From assembly GCA_964355175.1 (NCBI GenBank), contig CAYHBZ010000002.1, positions 396,537-460,536 on the forward strand: 64,000 bases of DNA. The letters are read 5' to 3'. Position numbers and translations under genes: made by a program. Shown here piece by piece: positions 7,955-59,919 of this stretch; position 1 is the first letter of the stretch; the number at the start of each line of letters is the position of its first letter. Below the pieces are notes generated by a model. It did no database searches. It worked only from the letters and a program-made list of their open reading frames with translations, and was not told the DNA's origin. This DNA is from an uncultured Gammaproteobacteria bacterium (GTDB lineage Bacteria > Patescibacteriota > Patescibacteriia > Magasanikbacterales > GWA2-37-8).

Positions 7955-8072
7955 AATCAGTTAAAATCAAATTTAACACCACGAATTATTGCGCCAGGTT
8001 TTGAGAGAGGCCCTAGCAATACATATAGACAGCTAGGTTAATTCTCTCTCAAAGGAGAATTTTTTACTTGTC

Positions 8073-8084
8073 GTTCTTTACAAT
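8073..8084 (+). promoter_or_regulatory. GTTCTTTACAAT box, copy 1 (followed by long leader hairpin, about 8093-8140)
   Basis: Exact 12-mer shared with 8941-8952 and 10397-10408. Confidence 0.5.
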
Positions 8085-8245
8085 AAATAGTGCTGAGCCC
8101 ACATGAGATCAAGAATTTCTTGATTTGATGCGGGTTCAGTGCACACAGCATTGACGTCCTCCGCGATTTTGCGGATTCGTTCAGTGCTGCGTACTGCAGC
8201 CAGGTCACGCGCCCACCTCAGTGGCGTTTCGTTCAGGAGTTTCCG

Positions 8246-8779
8246 ATGACCACCGCAAAGCACCCCGATCCGAACCATCCGGACCCCGGCACCACCGAAG
8301 AGCCCGTCGTCGACAAGGCGAAGGGCGACACGGTGGTGACCACGACGACCACCACGAGCGTTTCGTCGGCCGAGCCCATCAAGGCAAAGCCGGTGGCGAC
8401 CACCGACACCACGGCTGGCAAGACGGCGACCCAAGAGCCCAAGAAGGGTGGCTGGCCGCTCGGGACCATCGCCGGAGCTGTCGTGCTCGGTCTTCTGCTC
8501 CTCGGCGGCGTCTACTGGTTCGGCAGCCACAACAGCAGCACGCCGGTCGTCCCGCCCATCGCGGTCGCCGGTTGCTGTCTTCCCCAGGCCACCGTCGCGA
8601 GCCCCTGCTGCCCGCAACCGCCGGCTCCGCCCCCGCCGCCCGCCCCCGTCGTCAAGAAGAAGACGGTCGGCGAGTGCGTCGCCCAAGCCGTCGCCGGCAT
8701 GGAGGTCGCCCATGAGGACGACCGCCTCGCCGCGATGGACGGCGCCCGCGAAGAATGCGAGGAAGAATACGGCAAGTAG
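8246..8779 (+). CDS. GC-rich cassette A: bitopic membrane protein (Thr/Pro-rich N-terminal region, one TM, Cys/Pro-rich C-terminal region), no recognised family
   Basis: AGGAG 6 nt before ATG; strong G/C at codon position 3 in this frame only; TM WPLGTIAGAVVLGLLLLGGVYWF preceded by KKGG. Confidence 0.65.
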   Translation: MTTAKHPDPNHPDPGTTEEPVVDKAKGDTVVTTTTTTSVSSAEPIKAKPVATTDTTAGKTATQEPKKGGWPLGTIAGAVVLGLLLLGGVYWFGSHNSSTPVVPPIAVAGCCLPQATVASPCCPQPPAPPPPPAPVVKKKTVGECVAQAVAGMEVAHEDDRLAAMDGAREECEEEYGK

Positions 8780-8940
8780 CCGTTCCTGTCTCGCGTCGCT
8801 ATGTCGGTTCGGCGGGCCCTCAGCAATGAGGGTCCGCCGGCCGACTGGCTCGAATAGGACCTTTGTAGATTCCACTAGGGAAACTCCAAAGGTCCCCTAG
8901 ATTACATTCTTTTGGAAACAAGAGGATGTTGATAGGAAAA

Positions 8941-8952
8941 GTTCTTTACAAT
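8941..8952 (+). promoter_or_regulatory. GTTCTTTACAAT box, copy 2 (TTGATA 12 nt upstream)
   Basis: Exact 12-mer; about 35 nt upstream also similar to the copy 3 region. Confidence 0.5.
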
Positions 8953-9196
8953 TAAAACCAACAAAATTTTTTCCCACCTAAAAAGAATTATTATTTATAG
9001 TAATTCACTCTCGGTGGGAAAAAGTGTGGCGGAAATTCCGTTGCATAGCCTCCGACAGAGTCCCAATTGGGGCAAGTGCCCCGCGTGCGGGCTACTCTGT
9101 TACAGCGACCATTTCTGGGAAGCTGACCGAACGGCCCGCACGGCCGGTGTTCCAGTGTCTTGGTTTCGTGGGGTGAAAGTCCCCTGGAGTACAGCG

Positions 9197-10192
9197 ATGA
9201 ACAAGAATTCGAAGTTCCACAACCTCAGCATCTTGCTGACCCTGGCCATGGGGATCATGGTCGCTTCCAATTCCTACGCCGACGTGGCCACGGCTCGCGC
9301 TCGTGCCGAAGCCGCTCGTAGCCAGGCCAATCGGGCTGAGGTGAAAGCGGTCGACGCACAGACTGCGGCCAACGCGGCCAAGACCGGCGCCACCAACGCC
9401 CAGACCGCGGCCGATCAGGCCAAGGTCGAAGCGACCGCGGTGGGCACCAAGGCGGCCACTGACCTCGCTACGGCGATCCGCGCCCTCAACGGTGCGGTCG
9501 GCGGTGCGCGTGCGGCAGCGGTCAACGGTGATCGTCAGCTCGAGCGCAAGTTCAAGGCGGAGGCCGAGCGCCTTCAGACCGAGATCGAAGCGCTCAAGAA
9601 GCGGGCGCAGCACGAGTGTGCGGCGTTCGATGACAAGGGCAGCCAGGCGGCCTGTCTGACCATGCTCGAGAAGATCAACGCCAAGAACGGCGAAGTCACC
9701 ATGCACGGGCAAGACAAGGACACGGAGGTCCAGATCGCCAAGGTGGGACAGCAGTCCAAGGTGGTCCAGGAGATCTTCGACAACGCAAACCAAAACATGG
9801 ACGCCATCAAGGCGATCCAAATGGGTTGCGTCAACCAGGCCTTCGTCGACAAGGACGGCGTCAGCAAGAGCAAGTGGGAATGCCCCAAGGACATGAAGCG
9901 CGGCCCGCAGTTGCGCTACGAGCTCACGAACGTCTCGAAGTACGGCGACCACAGCGTCGTCATCGAGCCGGCCGAGAGCGGTGGCAATTCCAAGTGGGGC
10001 AAAGTGCTCGGCTTCGGCGCCATCGGTGGTGCTGCTGGCGGTGCTCTTGGCTGGGCCTTCTTCCCGAACCATGAAACCATGGAAGATGGCAGCGTCATGC
10101 ACCGGAATTACACCGGTCTCGTCGCTGGCACGGCCATCGGTTTCGTGGTCACGGCGGTGGCCACCCTGGTCATCGAAGAACTGACCGAATAG
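9197..10192 (+). CDS. GC-rich cassette B: secreted Ala-rich coiled-coil protein with C-terminal Gly-rich hydrophobic anchors, no recognised family
   Basis: GGAG 7 nt before ATG 9197; signal-peptide-like MNKNSKFHNLSILLTLAMGIMVASNSYA; GC3-biased frame; 9014-9196 treated as 5' leader. Confidence 0.65.
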   Translation: MNKNSKFHNLSILLTLAMGIMVASNSYADVATARARAEAARSQANRAEVKAVDAQTAANAAKTGATNAQTAADQAKVEATAVGTKAATDLATAIRALNGAVGGARAAAVNGDRQLERKFKAEAERLQTEIEALKKRAQHECAAFDDKGSQAACLTMLEKINAKNGEVTMHGQDKDTEVQIAKVGQQSKVVQEIFDNANQNMDAIKAIQMGCVNQAFVDKDGVSKSKWECPKDMKRGPQLRYELTNVSKYGDHSVVIEPAESGGNSKWGKVLGFGAIGGAAGGALGWAFFPNHETMEDGSVMHRNYTGLVAGTAIGFVVTAVATLVIEELTE

Positions 10193-10396
10193 GTCAACGG
10201 GTGAGGAGATCACCCCAAAGGATTGCAAGTGTGTTGGTTCACTTGCGCCAAATCTCGGTGTAGCTTATCTTGTCCCGCATTCGCGGTACGAGAGAAAGTT
10301 CACTAAACCGGTGGCGTGAACGATGGCTCAAATAGAGCTGTCGGTCACGCCCCAACAACTATCTTCTGTTTTTCAAACAGGGGATTGAGTTGGTAA

Positions 10397-10408
10397 GTTC
10401 TTTACAAT
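10397..10408 (+). promoter_or_regulatory. GTTCTTTACAAT box, copy 3 (TTGAGT 12 nt upstream; followed by hairpin, about 10426-10476)
   Basis: Exact 12-mer. Confidence 0.5.
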
Positions 10409-10641
10409 TTATTTCGTTAGATTTTCTCATACAGGACATAGGATATTTTTTGTATCTTGTGTCCTGTGTGAGAAGCCCCCAGTGGGGGTTGCCTGGGTGA
10501 AAACCCGACTAGGTCGGGGCGTTCGCTCCGGCAATTCCTCACTAGGGTGGTAAAAACGCCATCCGGACGGGTCAACTTCGACCTTTTCGGTAAAGTAGCA
10601 GTGTCTTTCTTTGTCCGCCCTTTAGTGGGCCGGAGGTTCTG

Positions 10642-12063
10642 ATGCGTAACCGGTTTCAATTGGTCGCGACTCTCGCGATGGCGGCTGCAGCCTGTGCAGC
10701 GTGTGGTGTCATCGAACATCCGGCCGATGCGGTCGTGATCGTGGTCGAAAAAGACGCCAGCAGCCAGGATGTCCAGCAGGACAACGGTCCGGCGCAGCAG
10801 CCCGAGATCGCGCAGACGGCCGACATCGCGCAGGACAACGGTCCGGCGACGAAGCCTGAGTGCGCGGTCGACAGCGACTGCGACGACAAGAACCCCTGCA
10901 CGACGGACGTCTGCGGCAGCAACGCCTGCGTCCACGTGGCCAACTCGGTCTCGTGCGACGACGGCAACGCCTGCACCAGCAACGACAAGTGCGGCTCCGA
11001 GAAGTGCTCGGGTGACCAGAAGGTCTGCGACGACAACAACCCCTGCACCGACGACGGCTGCGTCAGCGACGGCACCTGCCTGCACGGCGTCAACATCGTC
11101 AACTGCGACGACAGCGACGCCTGCACGGAAAAGGACCAGTGCGCCAACGGTAAGTGCGTCGGCCAGGTGAAGTCGTGCGACGACAAGGACAACTGCACGA
11201 CGGAATCGTGTGACAAGCTCAACGGGTGCTCGTCCACTCCGGTCGTCTGCCAGGACGCCGGGGATCCGTGCACGACGGAATCGTGCGACAAGGCAACGGG
11301 CAAGTGCTCGTCCACCACCGACTGCGACGACAAGGACGTCACCACGTTGGATGCCTGTGAACCGCTGCTCGAGACCGTGGGAATGGAGAAATGCCTCCAC
11401 ATCAAGATGCAGACCAAGTGCACCAAGAATGCGGATTGCGACGAGGACGGCGATCCGTGTTCGTTCGAGTTCTGTTCCCAGATCGGCTACTGCGCCAGCA
11501 AGTGGAAGTTGTGCGATGACGGAGACTACTGCACCCAGGACGAATGCGTCCCTCAGGCCGACTACGCCTGGTGCAAGAGCACTCAATACTCATGCGACGA
11601 CTACAACGCCTGCACGCTGGACTCCTGCACCAACGGCTACTGCCAACACAAGGGCAACGCCGCCATGTGCGACGACAAGGACTCCACCACCGCCGACTCG
11701 TGCAACCCTTCCCAGGGCTGCGTCAACACGCCGATTCCTCAACCCGGCGTGCCGAGCTCGACTCCTCCCTCGAATCCCTCGACCTGTGCGGCCTGGGGAG
11801 CGTGGATTTACTTGCCCACGGGCAACTGGCGCGGCGGCTATGACCTGACCGGTTCGTCTTCGCAAGAAACGGACCTGACAATCAGCGTCGACCAGTGGTA
11901 CGGCTTCAGCAACGCTCATTCTGTGTGGGCGTGGCTCAAGCCGTGGGGCAGTGCGGTACCGGCAAGCGTCAAGTGCACTGATCGGTGTGGTGTGGTCTTC
12001 CCCGCGAAGATCAGTGCCATGGCGGGTGGCTTCATCGCCATCTGCAGCACCGACCAGAAGTAG
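10642..12063 (+). CDS. GC-rich cassette C: Cys-rich repeat lipoprotein/secreted protein (tandem C-D-D-x-N-x-C-T-x-D-x-C units, Dicty_CTDC-like)
   Basis: GGAGG 5 nt before ATG; N-terminus MRNRFQLVATLAMAAAACAAC (signal/lipobox-like); 12 or more repeats of ~24 aa with spaced Cys; unrelated ~120-aa Trp-rich C-terminal domain. Confidence 0.75.
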   Translation: MRNRFQLVATLAMAAAACAACGVIEHPADAVVIVVEKDASSQDVQQDNGPAQQPEIAQTADIAQDNGPATKPECAVDSDCDDKNPCTTDVCGSNACVHVANSVSCDDGNACTSNDKCGSEKCSGDQKVCDDNNPCTDDGCVSDGTCLHGVNIVNCDDSDACTEKDQCANGKCVGQVKSCDDKDNCTTESCDKLNGCSSTPVVCQDAGDPCTTESCDKATGKCSSTTDCDDKDVTTLDACEPLLETVGMEKCLHIKMQTKCTKNADCDEDGDPCSFEFCSQIGYCASKWKLCDDGDYCTQDECVPQADYAWCKSTQYSCDDYNACTLDSCTNGYCQHKGNAAMCDDKDSTTADSCNPSQGCVNTPIPQPGVPSSTPPSNPSTCAAWGAWIYLPTGNWRGGYDLTGSSSQETDLTISVDQWYGFSNAHSVWAWLKPWGSAVPASVKCTDRCGVVFPAKISAMAGGFIAICSTDQK

Positions 12064-12330
12064 GCGGGGCTCAGGGGGTCTAACGGAAAAAGTTTTTGCT
12101 CTTTGGTAAAAGCAAACGGAAGGAGGTGTTCCTTTCGATAGGCCATTTCGGCCACCCATGCCAGAGGCGAGCGATCGCTAAAGGCTGGTCAACTAGGGGT
12201 GGTGTTGCTTCACCGCACACCACCCCGACCATCTCTAGCTCACAATATCTGTTGTGATCTGAAGATGGAAATAGCAATATGTCCATGACAAAAATACCAC
12301 CCTTCTCTCGGGCGGTTTTTTGTTTTTTAA

Positions 12331-18154: not shown

Positions 18155-18306
18155 AATAAGTCGTTTGTTCTTTATTTGGCAGGATAATTTTGGATTAAAA
18201 TTTTTAATTCAGAGTTATCGTGCCAACTTTCTCAATGCGTGTCGGCGAAATGCGTCGATATGTAAAGAGAGGTGCGAGAGCCTACATGGTAGGCAGGAGA
18301 GCAGGA

Positions 18307-19122
18307 ATGGCAGACAGCAGCCACAACGTTACTCAGGTCGGCATCACCGTCGGGCCGCCCAACGCCGATCTCGGCAGTGTGGTGGTTCGTCAGGAGGCGG
18401 CCAGGGCGGATCTCAATGAGCGGCGTACGCATCTCAGCTTGGTTGTCAAGCCCTCGGTCGATGATCTGGTCGCGCGGCTGAATGTCGAGCGGCAGGAAGT
18501 CGACCGCATCGGCGCGCTGGTCGATGCGGTAGAGCGCGAACAGGCGAAGAGCGTCAAGCACTTCGAATCGACGCTCGGCGGGCAGGCGCGGCTCTGGAAG
18601 AAGGGTTTCGACGCCCATGAGCGCTCGATCTTCTGGGTCAAGCTCCTCGGCGTCGTCGGCCTGGTCCTGGTCGGTATCGTCCTGGTCCTGAACCTGTCGT
18701 CCTCCTCGGACATCTCCACGGCCAAGTCGGAAGCCATCTCGGCCAAGACCACCGTGGCGGAGTTCAAGAAGGCCACCCAAGGCGAGGTCGTCAAGATCAA
18801 GAAGAGGCTCGATGCCAACAAGCTCGACATGGATCAGCTCAAGGATCAGATCAAGGTCGTCGGGCTCAAGGCTGACAAGAGCGTCGTCACTCGCATGGGC
18901 GAAGAGCTCAAAGAAGCCAACATCGAGCAGGACGGTCGGATCCAGGACATCGCCACCGCGATCATGGGCAAGGCCGACATAGCCGATCTCAAGAGCGTGA
19001 GGAGCGCAGTCGCGCAGGTTCGCCGGGCCAACGGCAAGGTGAACACGAAGATGACCAGGCTCGAAGCTCAGGTCCTGGAGCTCAAGGCCCAACTCCAGGC
19101 CCAACAGCCCAAGACCATGTAG
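18307..19122 (+). CDS. GC-rich cassette D: bitopic membrane protein with extracytoplasmic coiled coil, no recognised family
   Basis: AGGAGA 6 nt before ATG 18307; TM WVKLLGVVGLVLVGIVLVLNL; heptad-like K/D/L-rich C-terminal half; GC3-biased frame. Confidence 0.65.
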   Translation: MADSSHNVTQVGITVGPPNADLGSVVVRQEAARADLNERRTHLSLVVKPSVDDLVARLNVERQEVDRIGALVDAVEREQAKSVKHFESTLGGQARLWKKGFDAHERSIFWVKLLGVVGLVLVGIVLVLNLSSSSDISTAKSEAISAKTTVAEFKKATQGEVVKIKKRLDANKLDMDQLKDQIKVVGLKADKSVVTRMGEELKEANIEQDGRIQDIATAIMGKADIADLKSVRSAVAQVRRANGKVNTKMTRLEAQVLELKAQLQAQQPKTM

Positions 19123-19185
19123 TCCGTTCCCGATCTGTTCGGGCACTTGTAGTTTAGCCTTGATTTCTGAAGGCAAAAGCTCGGT

Positions 19186-19300
19186 GAGGACGCAAAATCC
19201 CCCCAAGGGTGTGTCGTTTACTCGACACTACCTGCTTAGTTCGCAAAAAATTGTTTGCTGAGCAGAATAAAAAATCCGCTATTATGGTGGATTTTTTAAT
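19186..19300 (+). repeat. 3' repeat R1, copy 1 (three hairpins, the last a terminator)
   Basis: About 80% identical to 20118-20238; bulged hairpin GGTGTGTCG-TTTACT-CGACACTACC; ends AAAAAATCCGC...GGTGGATTTTTT. Confidence 0.6.
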
Positions 19301-19330
19301 CTAAAATATGCTGTTTTTAGGTCAGTAGTA

Positions 19331-19359
19331 TTGACAAAGTAGGATTTTTATGTTTTAAT
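19331..19359 (+). promoter_or_regulatory. sigma70-like promoter of cassette E
   Basis: TTGACA, 17-nt spacer, TTTAAT. Confidence 0.55.
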
Positions 19360-19504
19360 AGTTCATTAGATTGTTCTTTTTAATCAATTCGCGCGACAAT
19401 TATAAATTAAAATTTTTCAATTTATAATCGTCGTGCGAATTTCAGTTTATCAATGACGGCCAGTCGGAGGTTCCGATTGGTTCAGCTCTTTCTGCGAGGT
19501 GAGC

Positions 19505-20074
19505 ATGGTTGATTTCAATCCCCCGGATCCAGTGGATCCAGAGAAGAAAAAGAAGCCTTCGTCGGCTGTGGAGACAGACCACAATTGGGAAGCCTGGGCC
19601 AACGATAATTCGGTCGATGACGGCAGTCATCCTCTGCCTGGTGAAGCCGAATACGTCGGACGGTCCGACCTTCCCATGACACGGGCACAGAAAGAGCGCA
19701 TCGCCGCGATCGTAGTCGGTACGGCCTTCCTGGTGTTGGTTTTCTTTGTCATCAATTTCGCTATCGGCAACAAGCTCAAGCATTCTGAAGCGGCCTCGTC
19801 CAACGAGGCTGGCAAGCAGAGCGCTCAGGCAAGTGCCGAAGTAGAATTGAAGGCAGAAGAAGCCGCCTCAGAGCAGGATCATACGGTCTCGCTGCCGGAT
19901 CACGCTTCGCAGGAAGATGATCTGGACGATGCTCGCGCGACCATCAAGGTCGTCGGTTTGGAGAAACGGCGCGTTCGAGATCCAGAGATGGAGCGGATCG
20001 CCGCAACCATCAAGATCGTGCCACTGCGTGTCAGTCCTGTCGCGGTACCGCTTCCAGCGGCCGCTACTCAGTAG
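19505..20074 (+). CDS. GC-rich cassette E: bitopic membrane protein with acidic C-terminal region, no recognised family
   Basis: GAGGTG just before ATG 19505; TM IAAIVVGTAFLVLVFFVINFAIG preceded by RAQKER; GC3-biased frame. Confidence 0.6.
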   Translation: MVDFNPPDPVDPEKKKKPSSAVETDHNWEAWANDNSVDDGSHPLPGEAEYVGRSDLPMTRAQKERIAAIVVGTAFLVLVFFVINFAIGNKLKHSEAASSNEAGKQSAQASAEVELKAEEAASEQDHTVSLPDHASQEDDLDDARATIKVVGLEKRRVRDPEMERIAATIKIVPLRVSPVAVPLPAAATQ

Positions 20075-20117
20075 TAGTCAAACATACTTTGAACCTAAAA
20101 GTGTGTGAGACTCCTGA

Positions 20118-20238
20118 ACAGGACAAAAAATCCCCAAAAGGGTGTGCCGACTGAAAAGTCGGCACTACCTGCTTAATCAATAAAACATTGTTTATTGAGC
20201 AGAATAAAAAATTCACTTTGAAAGGTGGATTTTTTAAT
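20118..20238 (+). repeat. 3' repeat R1, copy 2
   Basis: Same three-hairpin layout as 19186-19300; stem 1 differs by paired substitutions (GGTGTGCCGAC / GTCGGCACTACC). Confidence 0.6.
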
Positions 20239-24840: not shown

Positions 24841-25008
24841 ATTATTAGACGGTATTTTTTTACATTGAACAAGCGAGGAAATAATTTGTGAGCCGTGAGG
24901 CGTGGCTAGCCCTGCTGTTTGAGGAGCCGAGCGACGAGTTCAGGGCTAGAGCCGAGTGGGTTGCAAATTATCCGAGCGGTTCACTGTAAAAAAATACCGT
25001 CTAATAAT
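24841..25008. repeat. palindromic GC-cored intergenic element E1
   Basis: Perfect 24-bp terminal inverted repeat (24841-24864 / 24985-25008); ~100-nt core homologous to 35968-36066. Confidence 0.65.
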
Positions 25009-35927: not shown

Positions 35928-36104
35928 AAATAAATATTTCCCCTGAACGAGCCGCTGAAAATCCGAGCAAATAATTTGTGAGCCGACGAGGCGTCTCTGG
36001 CCGTGCTGTTTGAGGAGCCGCGCGACGAGTTCACGGCCAGAGTCTCGACGGGTTGCAAATTATGCGAAGATTTTCACAGGCGAGAGAAGGGGAAATATTT
36101 ATTT
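35928..36104. repeat. palindromic GC-cored intergenic element E2
   Basis: 16-bp perfect outer inverted repeat (35928-35943 / 36089-36104); core homologous to E1 with paired substitutions. Confidence 0.65.
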
Positions 36105-56121: not shown

Positions 56122-56206
56122 GGAGAGGTCGCATAGTGGCCGAGTGCGCCGCCTTGGAAAGGCGGTATACCGCAAGGTATCGAGGGTTCAAATCCCTCTC
56201 TCTCCG
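56122..56206 (+). tRNA. tRNA-Ser (anticodon GGA), long variable arm, CCA not encoded
   Basis: Hand-folded: acceptor GGAGAGG/TCTCTCC, anticodon stem CCGCC/GGCGG with loop TTGGAAA, 16-nt variable arm, T-arm GAGGG-TTCAAAT-CCCTC. Confidence 0.85.
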
Positions 56207-56244
56207 CTGGGTCACGCTTATATGAGCAAAGGGTTCATATTCCA

Positions 56245-56276: not shown

Positions 56277-56405
56277 ACCAGATAAAAAAATAATTCTTCA
56301 TAAAAACACACCGTCGGGTGTGTTTTTATATTGACAAAAATGTATTTTTAGTATAGGCTCTAGCCTGATCGTTCTCGCGGATTTCTCGCGCTACAGGAGG
56401 ACATC

Positions 56406-56774
56406 ATGGCAGATTCTCTGCCGTTCCAAGAAGATCTGCGTAAGCCATTCCACATCTCAGTCTGCGACCGGATCGCTCTCTGCCTCACGGCAATGAGCAT
56501 CTCCGGTGGAAGGGAGATCCCGCTCGGCATCCAGGAGGTGACCAGAGACCTGGATCTCTTGGACAAGACCAAGGTCCCGGCCAAGGAACTGCCCAGTGTG
56601 ACAAAGGCCCTCTACGGCCTGCGGGTGATGTACGGCCCTCTCATGCCGACGGTTTCTCAGCGCCTGACCCAATCGATCGACCTCTTGGTCGTGTATCAAG
56701 AGGAGCTGGCCGAGGATGGCAAGCTGGATCGCGACCTCGTGTGGTTGCCGCCTGTCGTCGACCCGGTAGCCTAG
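56406..56774 (+). CDS. GC-rich cassette G: 122-aa soluble protein, no recognised family
   Basis: AGGAGG 5 nt before ATG; GC3-biased frame; TTGACA at 56331. Confidence 0.6.
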   Translation: MADSLPFQEDLRKPFHISVCDRIALCLTAMSISGGREIPLGIQEVTRDLDLLDKTKVPAKELPSVTKALYGLRVMYGPLMPTVSQRLTQSIDLLVVYQEELAEDGKLDRDLVWLPPVVDPVA

Positions 56775-56900
56775 CTGGTCTGTAGATTTTCACCCGGTCT
56801 TCGTCTATGTCCGGGTTGAGAGGTGTTCATACACCACTCCGTCCCGACTTAGTCGAGACGTGAATCACCGCAAGGTAGTGACGAGAACATCAGACATTCA

Positions 56901-56970
56901 GACTGTTCGCGCTCACTTAAGATTATAACTTGATTATAGTTTTAAGTGACGAACAGTCTTTTTGTTTTTT
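56901..56970 (+). terminator. long hairpin terminator of cassette G
   Basis: AGACTGTTCG..TCACTTAA-(AT-rich apex)-TTAAGTGACGAACAGTCT followed by TTTTTGTTTTTT. Confidence 0.6.
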
Positions 56971-57041
56971 CTAAAGGATATTTTATAGATACGGATGGCA
57001 ATACTTTTGGTTTGCATCAGCCGGATGAAAAGGCGGCATAA

Positions 57042-57070
57042 TTGACTTTTTTGAATTTAATCGCTAAAAT
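57042..57070 (+). promoter_or_regulatory. sigma70-like promoter of cassette H
   Basis: TTGACT, 17-nt spacer, TAAAAT. Confidence 0.55.
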
Positions 57071-57105
57071 GGTGTTCAGCCATTTTGGCTTTTTGGAGTT
57101 TCGCC

Positions 57106-57327
57106 ATGAGTGTAAAATATCGTCCGGGAACCGGCAGGGAGCCGCGCATCTTCCATGAGAGTATGGGCTTGCCCAGCCGGACGGTCGTTCAGATCGACTG
57201 GTGGACCTGTCCGAACCTGATCGTGAAGGATGAGCAGTTCGGAAATCGCGAACTCTGTGACTTTCAGAACCCGTCTTGGGAACACAAGTGCCAGGGTTGC
57301 GGTGCCGATCGTCCCGATAAGTCCTAG
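57106..57327 (+). CDS. GC-rich cassette H: 73-aa protein with RanBP2-like zinc-ribbon (WWTC...C-x3-N-x6-C-x2-C-GA-x-RP)
   Basis: TGGAG 7 nt before ATG 57106; GC3-biased frame; C-terminal motif shared with cassette I. Confidence 0.6.
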   Translation: MSVKYRPGTGREPRIFHESMGLPSRTVVQIDWWTCPNLIVKDEQFGNRELCDFQNPSWEHKCQGCGADRPDKS

Positions 57328-57335
57328 GAGGACTC

Positions 57336-57362
57336 ATGCGTATCCGCGCACCCCCGCCTTAA
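57336..57362 (+). CDS. putative arrest-type mini-ORF MRIRAPPP*
   Basis: Stop of cassette H embedded in TAGGAGGA; ATG 3 nt after the SD; 8 codons ending RAPPP-stop; homologous to 58764..58793. Confidence 0.4.
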   Translation: MRIRAPPP

Positions 57363-57387
57363 AAAAGGCACAGGGAAGTAGCGGAAT

Positions 57388-57453
57388 AAAAACCGCCGCC
57401 AACCTGTTTTGTTTCCAAATACAATTGGAGATGGGATAGGCTGGCGGTTTTTT
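57388..57453 (+). terminator. long hairpin terminator of cassette H
   Basis: AAAACCGCCGCCAACCTGTTTTGTTTCCAA...TTGGAGATGGGATAGGCTGGCGGTTTTTT. Confidence 0.6.
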
Positions 57454-57455
57454 GT

Positions 57456-57484
57456 TTGACTTCCAGAGAGGGATTTGATAGTTT
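57456..57484 (+). promoter_or_regulatory. sigma70-like promoter of cassette I
   Basis: TTGACT, 17-nt spacer, TAGTTT; -35 abuts the terminator T-run. Confidence 0.45.
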
Positions 57485-57523
57485 TGATGGGCGCAAATTT
57501 CGCGCCAACCAGTGAGGAACACA

Positions 57524-57925
57524 ATGACTTGTGGTCAACGTCGCAAACTGCGTCTTGATATGATCGTGGTCAAGGGCTGGAACGGTCGTCGCCTCTCCAA
57601 GGGGTGTCGGAAGTACATACGCCGTCACCTGCCTCTGGAATGGCAGGCGATCGAGGATCGTGCTCAACAGGAGCGTGAGCTGGTGCGGCAGATCGAGCTG
57701 CACAAGGCGGCTGCTCGCAACAAGCAGACGGCTACGCGGCCGAGCTTCTCCGCGCCGTCGTTCGCTACGGCGAAGCCTGCACCGGTGCCGGTCAAGCCTC
57801 CGCGGGATCCATGGTGGACCTGCAAGGCCGAAACCAAGGGAGGTTATTTCTCCGGCGCCTGCAACGAGCTGAACTACAGTAATACCTCCTGCACCTACTG
57901 TGGTGCGGCTCGCCCGGCAGCGTGA
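57524..57925 (+). CDS. GC-rich cassette I: 133-aa basic protein with C-terminal RanBP2-like zinc-ribbon
   Basis: GAGGA 5 nt before ATG 57524; C-terminus PWWTC..(11)..C-NEL-N-YSNTS-C-TY-C-GAARP, paralogous to cassette H tail. Confidence 0.6.
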   Translation: MTCGQRRKLRLDMIVVKGWNGRRLSKGCRKYIRRHLPLEWQAIEDRAQQERELVRQIELHKAAARNKQTATRPSFSAPSFATAKPAPVPVKPPRDPWWTCKAETKGGYFSGACNELNYSNTSCTYCGAARPAA

Positions 57926-57931
57926 GGAATC

Positions 57932-57958
57932 ATGCACTACTCCACCGGACCGCCTTGA
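57932..57958 (+). CDS. putative arrest-type mini-ORF MHYSTGPP*
   Basis: Stop of cassette I embedded in TGAGGA; ATG 3 nt after; 8 codons ending GPP-stop. Confidence 0.35.
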   Translation: MHYSTGPP

Positions 57959-57988
57959 AATATAGGTGGGCAGGGCGGAGGAAGATTA

Positions 57989-58053
57989 CATCGACCACCA
58001 AACTGCTTTGTATGAAAATTTTTTATATAGAGCAGAGTGGTCGATGTTTTTTT
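57989..58053 (+). terminator. long hairpin terminator of cassette I
   Basis: CATCGACCACCAAACTGCTTTGTAT...ATATAGAGCAGAGTGGTCGATGTTTTTTT. Confidence 0.6.
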
Positions 58054-58064
58054 ATTTGAAATAC

Positions 58065-58093
58065 TTGACAAAAGCTCTATTTTTGTCTATAAT
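58065..58093 (+). promoter_or_regulatory. consensus sigma70 promoter of cassette J
   Basis: TTGACA, 17-nt spacer, TATAAT. Confidence 0.6.
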
Positions 58094-58197
58094 CATTAGT
58101 TAATTAATGGTCATCATATGATGCACGCCCAAAGAGGTTGGTCGTGTTTCATACCGTGATCCGTTAAGGAACATGGGCAACTCGCGTAGGGGGAAAT

Positions 58198-58746
58198 ATG
58201 TTGGAAATCATTTTGGAACCGAAGCTCAAGAACAAGTTCCTGACCGCTCGGGTCAAGGCGCATTGCGGGGTCATGACATGGTCGTTTTGCACCGCTGAAG
58301 GCGGTGTGGCGATCATCGAAGCGTTCGTCCGCGAACGCGTCTGGGGCTGGCAGGAAACTCGTCCGCTCTGCCGCCAGATGGAAGCGACTTTCCCCAAGGA
58401 TGCCAGCAAGTTGGCCGCCTGGCTCAACATGTTCGAGTCCTCCTCGTGCGATGTGGCCGTTCAGCCCATCCATCTCGTGGATCAAGCCGGCGCTTCCCTC
58501 GCTATCAGTGGCAACCAGCTGCATGATGGTGTGGTCGCTACGATCGGTACGGCCGTCTGCATGCTGGATCACTACCTCGTTCGCGGGGTGTTGCGCAACG
58601 GCGACTGCATCTCCGCGACGCAGCAGATGCTCCAGGCTGGCATGACCGACGTCATTTCGGAAAAGGCGTTTCGTGCTTTGACCGGTGGCATTCCGCTGTC
58701 CGGTTTCAACGAGTACGACTACCGTCGGATGGTCGGTCAACTCTAG
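58198..58746 (+). CDS. GC-rich cassette J: 182-aa soluble Cys-containing protein, no recognised family
   Basis: GGGGG 4 nt before ATG; clear GC3-biased frame. Confidence 0.65.
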   Translation: MLEIILEPKLKNKFLTARVKAHCGVMTWSFCTAEGGVAIIEAFVRERVWGWQETRPLCRQMEATFPKDASKLAAWLNMFESSSCDVAVQPIHLVDQAGASLAISGNQLHDGVVATIGTAVCMLDHYLVRGVLRNGDCISATQQMLQAGMTDVISEKAFRALTGGIPLSGFNEYDYRRMVGQL

Positions 58747-58763
58747 TCAAAGAGGAGGAGAAC

Positions 58764-58793
58764 ATGGTTTCTATCCGTGCTCCGCCCCGATAA
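58764..58793 (+). CDS. putative arrest-type mini-ORF MVSIRAPPR*
   Basis: AGAGGAGGAG then 3 nt then ATG, 17 nt after cassette J stop; 9 codons containing IRAPP. Confidence 0.4.
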   Translation: MVSIRAPPR

Positions 58794-58824
58794 AGGGCGA
58801 TAGGAAGGAGTACGGAGACAAAGA

Positions 58825-58888
58825 AAGCCGCGCACCAACCTATTTTGTTTCTAAATTTTTGGAAATAGAATAGGGTGCGTGGCTTTTG
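58825..58888 (+). terminator. long hairpin terminator of cassette J
   Basis: AAAGCCGCGCACCAACCTATTTTGTTTCTAAAT...GGAAATAGAATAGGGTGCGTGGCTTTTGTTTT; homologous to 57388-57453. Confidence 0.6.
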
Positions 58889-58947
58889 TTTTCCCCTATA
58901 CAAAACCTCATTTTTTGTGTAGGATAAGGGTTGATAACTTAATCAAT

Positions 58948-59919
58948 ATGTACGAAATAGTCTTATTTTATAAATACATTCACATAGCCGATCCGGAAGC
59001 CTTGATGAAGGCTCAGCGACAGGTGTGTACCGACCTTGGTCTCAAAGGCCGTCTTATTATTGCTACCGAGGGAGTCAATGGTACTTTTGAAGGTACTAAA
59101 GAAAATATTGCCAAATATATTGCCATCCTCAAAAAAGATGAGCGTTTTAATAATATTCATTTTAAATTAAGTTCCGGTACGGGGGGTGCTTTTCCTAGAT
59201 TATCTATAAAAGTGCGCAATGAAATTGTGAGCTCTCATCTTGGTGAAAAAGATATTGATCCTCGCACTACGACTGGTAAATATCTACAAGCCGAAGAATT
59301 ACACGAATGGATCCATGGTGGCAAAGAATTTTATATCGTGGATATGCGTAATGATTATGAATTTGAAGTTGGCCGCTTTGCCGGTTCGATTTTGCCACCG
59401 CTGAAAAATTTTCGTGATTTATCTGGAATTTTGCCGTCTCTAAAAAGTCTCAAAGATAAAACTGTGCTTACGGTTTGTACTGGTGGTGTGCGCTGTGAAA
59501 AGGCGTCAGGGTTTTTGGTAGACAATGGTTTTGCCGATGTGTATCAGCTGTACGGTGGTATTGTGACTTATATGGAAAAATATCCAAATGAAGATTTTAA
59601 AGGCGCACTGTATGTTTTTGATGGTCGTGTCACCATGGGTTTTAATTTGACTGATCCAAAACACGAAGTGGTAGGGAAGTGTTGGTTGTGCAAAAATCCC
59701 GCTGAAAAATATTTGGATTGTGCCTTTTTACACTGTCGCGGCAAGCGTCACTTTCTCTGCTGTCAGAGTTGTGAAAAAACCAAACAAGGATATTGTGGCA
59801 CAATTTGTAAATTGAAAGAAAAATTAGGACCAGTATCGTTGACCATTGAACGTTTTTACTATAAAATAAGTAGTGTAATCAAAAAATACCATGTCCAAAA
59901 AAACCACTCTACAAATTAA
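58948..59919 (+). CDS. trhO: rhodanese-domain UPF0176/TrhO-family protein (tRNA U34 hydroxylase-like)
   Basis: N-terminal LFYKY..I.DPE...GL.GR.I.A.EG.NGT and CTGGVRCEKAS rhodanese loop; ATG 58948. Confidence 0.7.
   Translation: MYEIVLFYKYIHIADPEALMKAQRQVCTDLGLKGRLIIATEGVNGTFEGTKENIAKYIAILKKDERFNNIHFKLSSGTGGAFPRLSIKVRNEIVSSHLGEKDIDPRTTTGKYLQAEELHEWIHGGKEFYIVDMRNDYEFEVGRFAGSILPPLKNFRDLSGILPSLKSLKDKTVLTVCTGGVRCEKASGFLVDNGFADVYQLYGGIVTYMEKYPNEDFKGALYVFDGRVTMGFNLTDPKHEVVGKCWLCKNPAEKYLDCAFLHCRGKRHFLCCQSCEKTKQGYCGTICKLKEKLGPVSLTIERFYYKISSVIKKYHVQKNHSTN

Follow-up and report, generated by a model that had tools for sequence, protein, structure and literature searches.

Candidate translation-dependent attenuators with RAPP-type mini-ORFs behind small orphan genes of Candidatus Magasanikbacteria

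Introduction

How is a mini open reading frame (mini-ORF) of eight or nine codons with consecutive proline codons near its end to be understood, when it recurs between the stop codon of a small gene and a long hairpin terminator? The window analyzed here, i.e., the whole stretch of 64,000 nucleotides (nt) from contig CAYHBZ010000002.1, belongs to a ~40% G+C contig of Candidatus Magasanikbacteria (Candidate Phyla Radiation, CPR/Patescibacteria), and one such module lies directly 3' of each of its small orphan genes H, I, and J. The original prediction for this locus proposed that segments 1 to 4 of every module fold into mutually exclusive hairpins (1:2, 2:3, and 3:4) and that a ribosome stalled on the proline codons prevents formation of the terminator 3:4. 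Following a comparison with relatives, we tentatively favor a similar reading, in which each module could be a translation-dependent attenuator at the 3' end of a small orphan gene. The comparative evidence, the coding character of the mini-ORF, and its arrest motif speak for a terminator/antiterminator controlled by translation arrest, and the weak energies of the 2:3 pairing speak against it.

Results

A mini-ORF with a coding signature and an arrest motif

Each module consists, in this order, of a Shine-Dalgarno sequence, a mini-ORF, hairpin 1:2, a purine-rich linker, and a hairpin of 23-29 base pairs (bp) followed by a U tract, all on the + strand. The Shine-Dalgarno sequence is GGAGG-like, is located 4-6 nt before the start of the mini-ORF, and abuts or overlaps the stop codon of the upstream gene, except in module J. 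In module H, GGAGG (57327-57331) overlaps the TAG stop codon of gene H (57325-57327), and the mini-ORF (57336-57362) encodes MRIRAPPP, containing the arrest motif RAPP, with a stall predicted when the first Pro codon (57351-57353) occupies the ribosomal P-site. Module I has the Shine-Dalgarno-like GAGGA (57924-57928), overlapping the TGA stop codon of gene I (57923-57925), and its mini-ORF MHYSTGPP (57932-57958) ends with Pro-Pro directly before TGA. In module J the Shine-Dalgarno sequence GAGGAGGAG (58752-58760) starts 6 nt past the TAG stop codon of gene J (58744-58746), and the mini-ORF MVSIRAPPR (58764-58793) is predicted to stall with CCG 58782-58784 in the P-site.

Including these three, 20 distinct modules were assembled, which stand behind three unrelated small-protein families and all come from a narrow clade of Candidatus Magasanikbacteria. 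Exact-protein look-ups and a homologue search with protein J led to loci L007, L009/L010, and L011 (74-86% protein identity), scans of genome collections and metagenomes with degenerate patterns to L012, L028/L073, L039, L053, L058, and L062, and profile searches with the two other carrier-protein families plus look-ups of the contigs to L088-L097.

The mini-ORFs encode two types of peptides. IRAPP-type peptides (MRIRAPPP, MRIRAPPPY, MVSIRAPPR/Q, MYSIRAPPR, MPIRAPPR, MNIRAPPK/R, MSIRAPPK, and MSIRAPPQQ) are terminated by TAA (TAG in L096) 1-2 codons past Pro-Pro or, in MRIRAPPP, directly after the third Pro. TGPP-type peptides (MHYSTGPP, MRYSTGPP, MKHPTGPP, and MRTTTGPP; four or five copies) lack the Arg, and TGA follows Pro-Pro directly in all copies that retain a stop codon. 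Among the 16 copies of the IRAPP type, 13 carry RAPP and three RASP, and Ile-Arg-Ala is kept, with synonymous changes, in every one. The H orthologue L088 reads MRIRAPPPY, with Ala and Pro codons changed synonymously, and the J orthologues read MVSIRAPPQ, (GTG)VSIRAPPQ, and MYSIRAPPR with GCT, GCA, and GCC as Ala codons. When the 12 distinct IRAPP cores are compared, variation is seen at all five third codon positions and at just one of the remaining ten (hypergeometric p=0.002), the variants being ATC/ATT, CGT/CGC, GCN, CCG/CCC/CCA, and CCN, with all four third bases used at the Ala codon. Copies that were retrieved via neighboring proteins, i.e., with no selection on the motif, also read IRA[P/S]P and display the same periodicity. 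Judged by this pattern of variation, the mini-ORF is coding.

The alternative that the mini-ORF is an untranslated by-product of a C-rich strand that pairs with a G-rich strand would account for the CCG-to-TCG exchange in two sub-lineages, which replaces Pro by Ser and thereby breaks the peptide motif but retains a G-U pair, and it might also draw on other GC-rich genes of the window, whose structured 3' regions (19122-19297 and 20074-20234) have a CCCC..GGG hairpin and no ATG. A structure of RNA only would not explain the three-base periodicity with its fourfold variation at the Ala codon, nor the presence of ATG or GTG at proper spacing from a Shine-Dalgarno sequence in 19/20 copies, nor the stop codons, which differ invariably between the two peptide types, nor the agreement with an arrest motif that was defined by experiment, is rare, and is avoided in bacterial proteomes (PMC12992588). 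We therefore regard this alternative as very improbable.

RAPP and RGPP are robust arrest motifs, in which peptidyl-RAP-tRNA in the P-site is unable to react with the Pro-tRNA in the A-site; the arrest peptide ApdP has the sequence ..KCIRAPP, and a minimal RxPP is reported to suffice for arrest (PMC10951233, PMC12992588). As RAPP/RGPP arrest is reported to be refractory to elongation factor P (EF-P) (PMC12992588), the EF-P-sensitive stall that had been proposed for the window modules is doubtful for the IRAPP type. In two copies the stop codon of the mini-ORF is lost while the other parts are kept, in L039 (10348-10425) by a change of TGA to GGA and in L097 (~1258-1324), where no stop codon appears before the contig end; both frames extend into the terminator. 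Such losses would be expected if ribosomes seldom pass the Pro codons and fit that assumption, although an assembly error is possible.

Hairpin 1:2 and terminator 3:4

Unconstrained minimum free energy (MFE) folds of 57325-57455 (H, -54.3 kcal/mol), 57923-58055 (I, -56.4 kcal/mol), and 58744-58890 (J, -63.8 kcal/mol) contain the same two elements, a Pro-Pro hairpin and then a hairpin of 23-29 bp with a U tract. Their z-scores are -4.5, -8.5, and -7.2, respectively, and none of 200 dinucleotide shuffles is as stable. All 16 of the 16 segments on which the original prediction was built agree exactly with the window in position and sequence.

In hairpin 1:2 the Pro-Pro codons pair with GGYGG just 3' of the stop codon, which itself sits in the loop. 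In H (57343-57385) GCCTT (57356-57360) pairs with AAGGC (57365-57369) and CCC with GGG, the TAA being in the loop of the MFE fold, in I (57940-57980) CCGCCT (57950-57955) pairs with AGGTGG (57964-57969) and outer pairs are formed by CTCC/GGAG, and in J (58774-58816) CGCCC (58783-58787) pairs with GGGCG (58795-58799), with CCGTGCTCC/GGAGTACGG as outer stem. The hairpin is predicted in 19/19 copies folded, the region having -15 to -25 kcal/mol. Whole-module MAFFT alignments (A1, A4, A5) misalign the mini-ORF and the linker, and motif-anchored windows (A6, A7) were therefore used for pairing statistics, with an unanchored RNAalifold run (A8) as cross-check. In the 17 non-identical rows of such windows 88% of the inner helix of 1:2 is paired, with covariation between the third base of the second Pro codon and the base opposite (CG 8, UA 5, UG 3).

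The intrinsic terminator of H (57388-57453) comprises an A tract, a 23-bp hairpin with 7 G-U pairs, and TTTTTT, that of I (57988-58054) a 28-bp hairpin (57988-58047) and TTTTTTT, and that of J (58825-58893) a 29-bp hairpin (58825-58885) and a TTTTGTTTT tract. Across the copies, terminators have -27 to -42 kcal/mol and stems of about 22-34 bp that run into T4-7 or TTTTGTTTT. In the 3:4 columns tested pairing reaches 96.5%, and three pairs have both bases exchanged. Owing to 4-7 G-U pairs the terminator hairpins are strand-specific, the + strand being 8-16 kcal/mol more stable than the - strand.

Segment 2:3 and a three-way covariation

When bases covered by the ribosome are masked and the transcript is cut before the right arm of the terminator appears, one common 2:3 helix is obtained in nearly all copies. 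In this helix the linker sequence [G][C/T]AG[G] pairs with C-CT[G/A]-Y of a conserved CCAAMCTRY box, and the terminator base contributes CC.CC or CCG as partner of a GG(A)GG stretch. In H, segment 2 (57370-57384) is made up of the covarying core ACAGG (57370-57374) and GCGG (57381-57384), and segment 3 (57393-57407), part of the left terminator arm, of CCGC (57393-57396) and CCTGT (57403-57407). In J the corresponding parts are ATAGG (58800-58804, covarying core) and CGG (58813-58815) in segment 2 (58800-58815) and CCG (58828-58830) and CCTAT (58839-58843) in segment 3 (58828-58843).

For H and J these are exactly the pairings proposed at the outset, but the one proposed for module I, GGTGG with CCACC, does not hold as conserved 2:3 helix. 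A C.A mismatch (GGCGG) occurs in L058, L090, L091, L093, L095, and L096, the pairing is absent in L012, and at +12 to +16 it would lie within the stalled ribosome. Instead, nascent-transcript folds and covariation assign to module I the adjoining pairing of GGCAG (57969-57973) with CTGCT (58003-58007), so that segment 2 is redefined as 57969-57981, with GG at 57977-57978 and at 57980-57981, and segment 3, in the left arm of the terminator, extends over 57995-58007 and includes CCACC (57995-57999).

The six-pair core of 2:3 is 87% paired in 18 non-identical rows of the motif-anchored windows, and none of 500 shuffles matches the observed pairing or covariation. Shifting the partner by 1-3 columns (slid controls) lowers pairing to 21-57% and leaves hardly any covariation. 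At the Y:R pair 12 rows have CG, six have UA, and none is broken, and RNAalifold recovers the helix from the unanchored alignment with no preset list of pairs. The change of ACAGG/CCTGT in H to ATAGG/CCTAT in J, which had been noticed as a compensatory double change, is real, and the same two columns change together in relatives. Moreover, the third strand participates: module I of the window has C/G/C as variable bases of segments 2/3/4, its orthologue L007, with 92% overall identity, has T/A/T, as do L073 and all four J copies, and H and L088 have C/G/(C or T). On a neighbor-joining tree this three-way change is placed as at least three separate events. The chance that one independent column with three changes gives this pattern is 5e-4, or about 0.01-0.02 after correction for roughly 25 linker columns. 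Hairpin 1:2 cannot account for the covariation of YAG, because this linker motif sits unpaired in its internal loop. Judged from these sequences, a YAG that covaries with both CTR of the left arm and YAG of the right arm looks like the signature of mutually exclusive helices 2:3 and 3:4. Covariation is found for all three pairings, 1:2, 2:3, and 3:4, in this set of about 20 sequences.

Spacing, energetics, and a constitutive terminator as alternative

Counted from the first base of the predicted stall P-site, the covarying base Y is situated at +18 to +22 nt in 20/20 copies. This spacing is constant irrespective of how many codons follow Pro-Pro and places Y just past the ribosome edge (roughly +15). 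For a ribosome at the stop codon of a RAPP-type mini-ORF, in contrast, Y would be at +10 to +16, inside the ribosome or at its edge. By analogy, this spacing between stall site and Y is the arrangement of a trp-type attenuator. A direct steric block of the terminator by the stalled ribosome was considered and rejected, as the leading edge ends 14-33 nt short of the stem base.

Several points weigh against the attenuator reading. In equilibrium folds with ribosome masks reaching to +12, +15, or +18, the basal terminator pairs are kept at p>=0.99 in most copies, and an enforced 2:3 state is 9-17 kcal/mol less stable than the terminator state. To refold into the terminator, an estimated barrier of 3-7 kcal/mol has to be overcome in 5/7 copies, which implies refolding on a millisecond scale, and one of 11.5-13 kcal/mol in the other two. 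The consensus energy of 2:3 is only -2.3 kcal/mol (RNAalifold), and 2:3 covers just the base of the terminator, so that the apical 10-11 bp still form and strand displacement of 2:3 should be easy. Shuffled linkers pair with the C-rich arm almost equally well (mean z -1.2), a test that is weakly favorable because any G-rich linker pairs with a C-rich arm. The sample consists of about 20 related sequences with three covariation events, and some copies were retrieved with patterns that demand x-[A/G]-P-P and a CCAAMCTRYTTTGT box. With regard to the peptide, known RAPP arrest peptides are far longer, and arrest is tuned by their N-terminal residues (PMC10951233). The mini-ORFs have 8-9 codons, no hydrophobic segment, and 7 residues made at the predicted arrest point, and arrest on such a chain is a prediction from the motif match. 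RASP replaces RAPP in L092, L093/L094, and L095, where the RNA pair is maintained via G-U; in two of these three sequences, MRIRASP and MSIRASP, the stop codon is shifted to directly after Pro, but MRIRASPQ is left with no known stall motif. Finally, a TATAAT-like box, often preceded by TG, occurs within about 35 nt 3' of most relatives' modules, and promoters so close behind leave less need for regulated read-through.

At equilibrium, then, 2:3 is unable to compete with the terminator, the outcome that had been named as speaking against a switch. A second outcome named in this sense, missing covariation, did not occur. Any effect of 2:3 must therefore be kinetic, and these folding models suggest that its function is probably partial.

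These energies would suit a different explanation, which we consider unlikely, namely that the terminator is constitutive and the stall acts post-transcriptionally. A ribosome parked after the stop codon of the main gene might stabilize the 3' end, trigger cleavage and decay by collision with ribosomes that terminate on the main gene, or limit re-initiation. Hairpin 1:2 would then do no more than adjust how accessible the mini-ORF is, and the complementarity of segments 2 and 3 would either help folding or be coincidental. The terminator prevails in all equilibrium folds and faces a low barrier in most copies, and with promoters behind most modules the terminators look like insulators between transcription units. 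A ribosome with its P-site at 57351, covering about 15 nt on each side, would span roughly 57336-57366, cover the start of the mini-ORF, and abut a ribosome terminating at 57325-57327. The modules also begin 4-25 nt past an upstream gene in all copies, whatever follows downstream. What such a parked ribosome leaves unexplained are the three co-changes of an unpaired linker base with both terminator arms and the constant spacing of +18 to +22, and the sequences carry no bearing on messenger RNA half-life.

Promoters, downstream genes, and a possible proline sensor

A sigma-70-like promoter precedes gene H (57042-57070), a perfect TTGACA-17-TATAAT precedes gene J (58065-58093), and gene I possesses TTGACT...TAGTTT, an element conserved in L039. 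With promoters in front of both I and J, the chain of read-through from H to I to J that had been envisaged is unnecessary. The situation differs for trhO (start at 58948), which follows the J module directly in four species. In the four orthologues the 60 nt that separate trhO from the J terminator are free of any -10-like hexamer, and window positions 58894-58947 contain neither a recognizable sigma-70-like promoter nor a Shine-Dalgarno sequence before trhO. Given this lack of a -10-like element, trhO-suf may depend on read-through from J. The stretch CATTTTTTGTGTAGGATA (within 58894-58947) is conserved in relatives and could be an unconventional promoter for trhO.

TrhO hydroxylates U34 of tRNAs, and its targets include readers of Pro, Ala, Ser, and Val codons. 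The J mini-ORF is filled with such codons. A further possibility is a conditional proline sensor, as the original prediction had it, in which ribosomes pause at the Pro codons only when Pro-tRNA(Pro) or EF-P activity is low and the antiterminator forms, or a variant confined to J that provides feedback on TrhO. Consecutive Pro codons are invariant in 17/20 copies, and the J module is found directly before trhO in those four species. The TGPP-stop type, lacking the RAPP Arg, resembles an EF-P-type or a termination-type pause. Inefficient release of peptides that end in Pro has been reported (PMC7246954), and attenuators with Pro codons exist, for example mgtP (PMC3641672). In contrast, a pure Pro-codon sensor has no need for the Ile-Arg-Ala found in 16/16 IRAPP-type copies, nor does it agree with the EF-P-refractory nature of RAPP/RGPP arrest. 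The mini-ORFs offer just two or three Pro codons, and the same mini-ORFs precede genes that are unrelated to one another and to proline metabolism. Altogether, a proline sensor seems distinctly unlikely to us.

Distribution and genomic setting

The scan of species-representative genomes yields 2 loci, both from Magasanikbacteria, and among 74 loci from the metagenome scan only 6 are true modules (L028/L073, L039, L053, L058, L062), the rest being chance matches. The two carrier-protein families have 6 and 10 members among 5.8 billion proteins in the profile searches. With so few loci and such tiny families, the element appears confined to a narrow clade, and these collections are too small a source for a large alignment of it. 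Three scans of a viral collection with mini-ORF and terminator patterns revealed no module, and a phage origin was rejected on these grounds. In Rfam searches of the whole window in gathering mode only two tRNAs pass and no family is found for the modules, whereas in E-value mode the best match for 56700-59000 is SpF43, a generic long hairpin, with 33 bits against a threshold of 70. An integron attC-like site, i.e., a cassette with a 3' palindrome, was rejected on reading, as each unit has its own promoter and U tract and the hairpins are RNA-strand-specific; core sites R''/R' of the attC type were not seen on reading the units.

Genes H (57106-57327, + strand, 73 amino acids), I (57524-57925, + strand, 133 amino acids), and J (58198-58746, + strand, 182 amino acids) as well as gene G (56406-56774) are small orphan genes. 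Proteins H and I have a C-terminal W-x-C...C-x-x-C-G zinc ribbon in common, and Pfam searches of the carrier genes gave no matches save a sub-threshold RanBP2-type zinc ribbon in H. They reside in the third of three islands of the window (8-12.2 kb, 18.2-20.1 kb, and 56.4-58.75 kb) with 55-62% G+C, which is flanked by tRNA-Ser(GGA) (56122-56207) and trhO-sufCBDS. The islands (8000-12200, 18200-20100, and 56400-58750) encode orphan proteins with no Pfam family, except for a 473-amino-acid protein (10642-12063) with Dictyostelium CTDC-type Cys-rich repeats, and every island gene has an A+T-rich promoter of host type and a hairpin terminator of unusual length.

Gene content between tRNA-Ser and trhO varies among relatives. 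At 56975-57041 the window contains a remnant of a glyoxalase-family gene, comprising only about its last 22 codons (ending in DTDGNTFGLHQPDEKAA and the stop), whereas the gene is complete at the equivalent place in L009 (821-1219) and L011, which indicates that the island has been rearranged. Gene G is followed by its own structured 3' region of ~200 nt (56775-56975), which contains no mini-ORF, ends in a long hairpin terminator, and is kept in L009 (553-760) with apparently compensatory changes (CCCGACTTAGTCGAGACG vs CCCGACTCAGTTGGGATG). The 5' untranslated region of gene J, ~105 nt long (window 58094-58197; L007 490-595; L009 1660-1768; L011 330-432), contains ..CAGTTAATTAATGGTCATCATATG...TTCATACCGTGATCCGTTAAGGAACATGG.., and its conservation across four species equals or exceeds that of the coding sequence. 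This region may form a structured leader, and Rfam gives no match to it within an E-value cut-off of 5.

A different 3' module (family D6) is repeated behind two GC-rich genes (19122-19297 and 20074-20234) with 75% identity over 76 nt. It consists of an ATCCCC(CC)AA..GGG hairpin, a second hairpin on an ACCTGCT box, and a separate terminator. The ACCTGCT box resembles the CCAAMCTGCT box of the modules, and an ATG mini-ORF is lacking. D6 may be a mini-ORF-less relative of the same design. Furthermore, a G+C-rich repeat of 55 nt (family D16; GAGGCGTGGCTAGCCCTGCTGTTTGAGGAGCCGAGCGACGAGTTCAGGGCTAGAG) occurs with 87% identity at two distant intergenic or gene-end positions (24897-24951 and 35988-36042).

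Discussion

In the attenuator that we propose, a ribosome would reach the mini-ORF probably by re-initiation after the upstream gene, because the Shine-Dalgarno sequence touches the stop codon of that gene, and would be arrested at Arg-Ala-Pro/Pro by an intrinsic, RAPP-type mechanism or at Pro-Pro-UGA in the TGPP-stop type. With no ribosome present, the Pro-Pro codons would pair with GGYGG and the Ile-Arg-Ala codons with the GGAG-rich stretch; 1:2 would thus serve as an anti-antiterminator, the long terminator 3:4 would form, and transcription would end. An arrested ribosome on the Pro codons, in contrast, would melt 1:2 and free YAG(G) and GG(A)GG, which, 18-22 nt past the P-site, could pair with the basal CTR and CC.CC of the nascent left arm. 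Helix 2:3 would then delay closing of the basal, U-tract-proximal part of the terminator and permit some read-through. We infer both that ribosomes really arrest on so short a peptide and that 2:3 reduces termination. The most economical guess for the signal sensed is whether the upstream gene and the mini-ORF are translated in step with transcription.

The trp, his, phe, and leu attenuators share with the modules a short ORF in segment 1, overlapping pairings 1:2, 2:3, and 3:4, which are predicted in the case of the modules, and a terminator with a U-tract, as well as the logic that a stall in segment 1 frees segment 2, which a ribosome at the stop codon would cover (as it would cover Y of the modules at +10 to +16). 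In contrast to these attenuators, the stall in the modules would result from a nascent-peptide arrest motif and not from repeated codons of the regulated amino acid, the modules are located 3' of a complete preceding gene and not in a promoter-proximal 5' leader, their antiterminator is far weaker than the terminator, and their downstream genes have no relation to proline metabolism and mostly possess their own promoters.

During the TnaC stall the P-site contains Pro and the A-site UGA, which is also the state proposed for the TGPP-stop type, but TnaC blocks Rho, whereas the modules contain an intrinsic terminator. In bmrB-bmrCD and mef/mel (PMC4191407, PMC4335068), as in TnaC and, by our proposal, the modules, a stall on a very short ORF decides on downstream termination; these known systems need an antibiotic or free tryptophan, and no ligand is indicated for the modules. 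Similarly, mgtP (mgtCBR leader) and mgtL (mgtA leader) of Salmonella are short ORFs with consecutive Pro codons that select alternative stem-loops controlling downstream transcription (PMC3641672, PMC5299641, PMC6460261). Unlike the modules, they respond to the supply of Pro-tRNA or EF-P, lack the Arg-Ala context, and belong to 5' leaders of enterobacterial Mg2+ transporter operons (PMC3641672, PMC5299641, PMC6460261).

With regard to the peptide, ApdA, ApdP, ApcA, CruR, and the Streptomyces RAPP/RGPP peptides have the identical core, including the Ile of ApdP (..CIRAPP), and carry the motif at the C-terminal end of a small ORF, 1-2 codons before the stop codon (PMC7897499, PMC10951233, PMC10987492, PMC12992588). 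The known members reportedly reach about 300 residues and usually have a signal peptide or membrane segment, export relieves the arrest, and most act by unmasking a downstream ribosome-binding site (PMC7897499, PMC10951233, PMC10987492, PMC12992588). In the modules, by contrast, an ORF of 8-9 codons that lacks a targeting signal precedes an intrinsic terminator as output structure, in a host of the CPR. That the element works like a trp-type attenuator driven by RAPP-type arrest is partly supported; it fits neither family completely, as it does not constitute a 5' leader and its ORF is far shorter than known RAPP peptides and has no targeting signal.

A more far-reaching proposal, which we put forward as a doubtful one, is that, among natural RAPP-type arrest ORFs, the mini-ORFs are the shortest and the first from the CPR, and that they act as a gate on a terminator that asks whether the message is translated and not as a secretion monitor. 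This gate would link orphan genes to downstream units, including the apparently promoter-less trhO-sufCBDS, and the stall in J may also report the decoding capacity of TrhO-modified tRNAs. Even if the antiterminator is ineffective, a conserved programmed arrest site right after orphan genes would still need its own explanation. If the attenuator reading is true, the RAPP module works on a chain of seven residues, which bears on the need for an N-terminal “regulator” part, and RAPP-mediated control extends beyond translational unmasking to intrinsic termination. To our knowledge, gene regulation in CPR/Patescibacteria is almost unknown, and the modules would then be among the first cis-regulatory mechanisms described for these bacteria.

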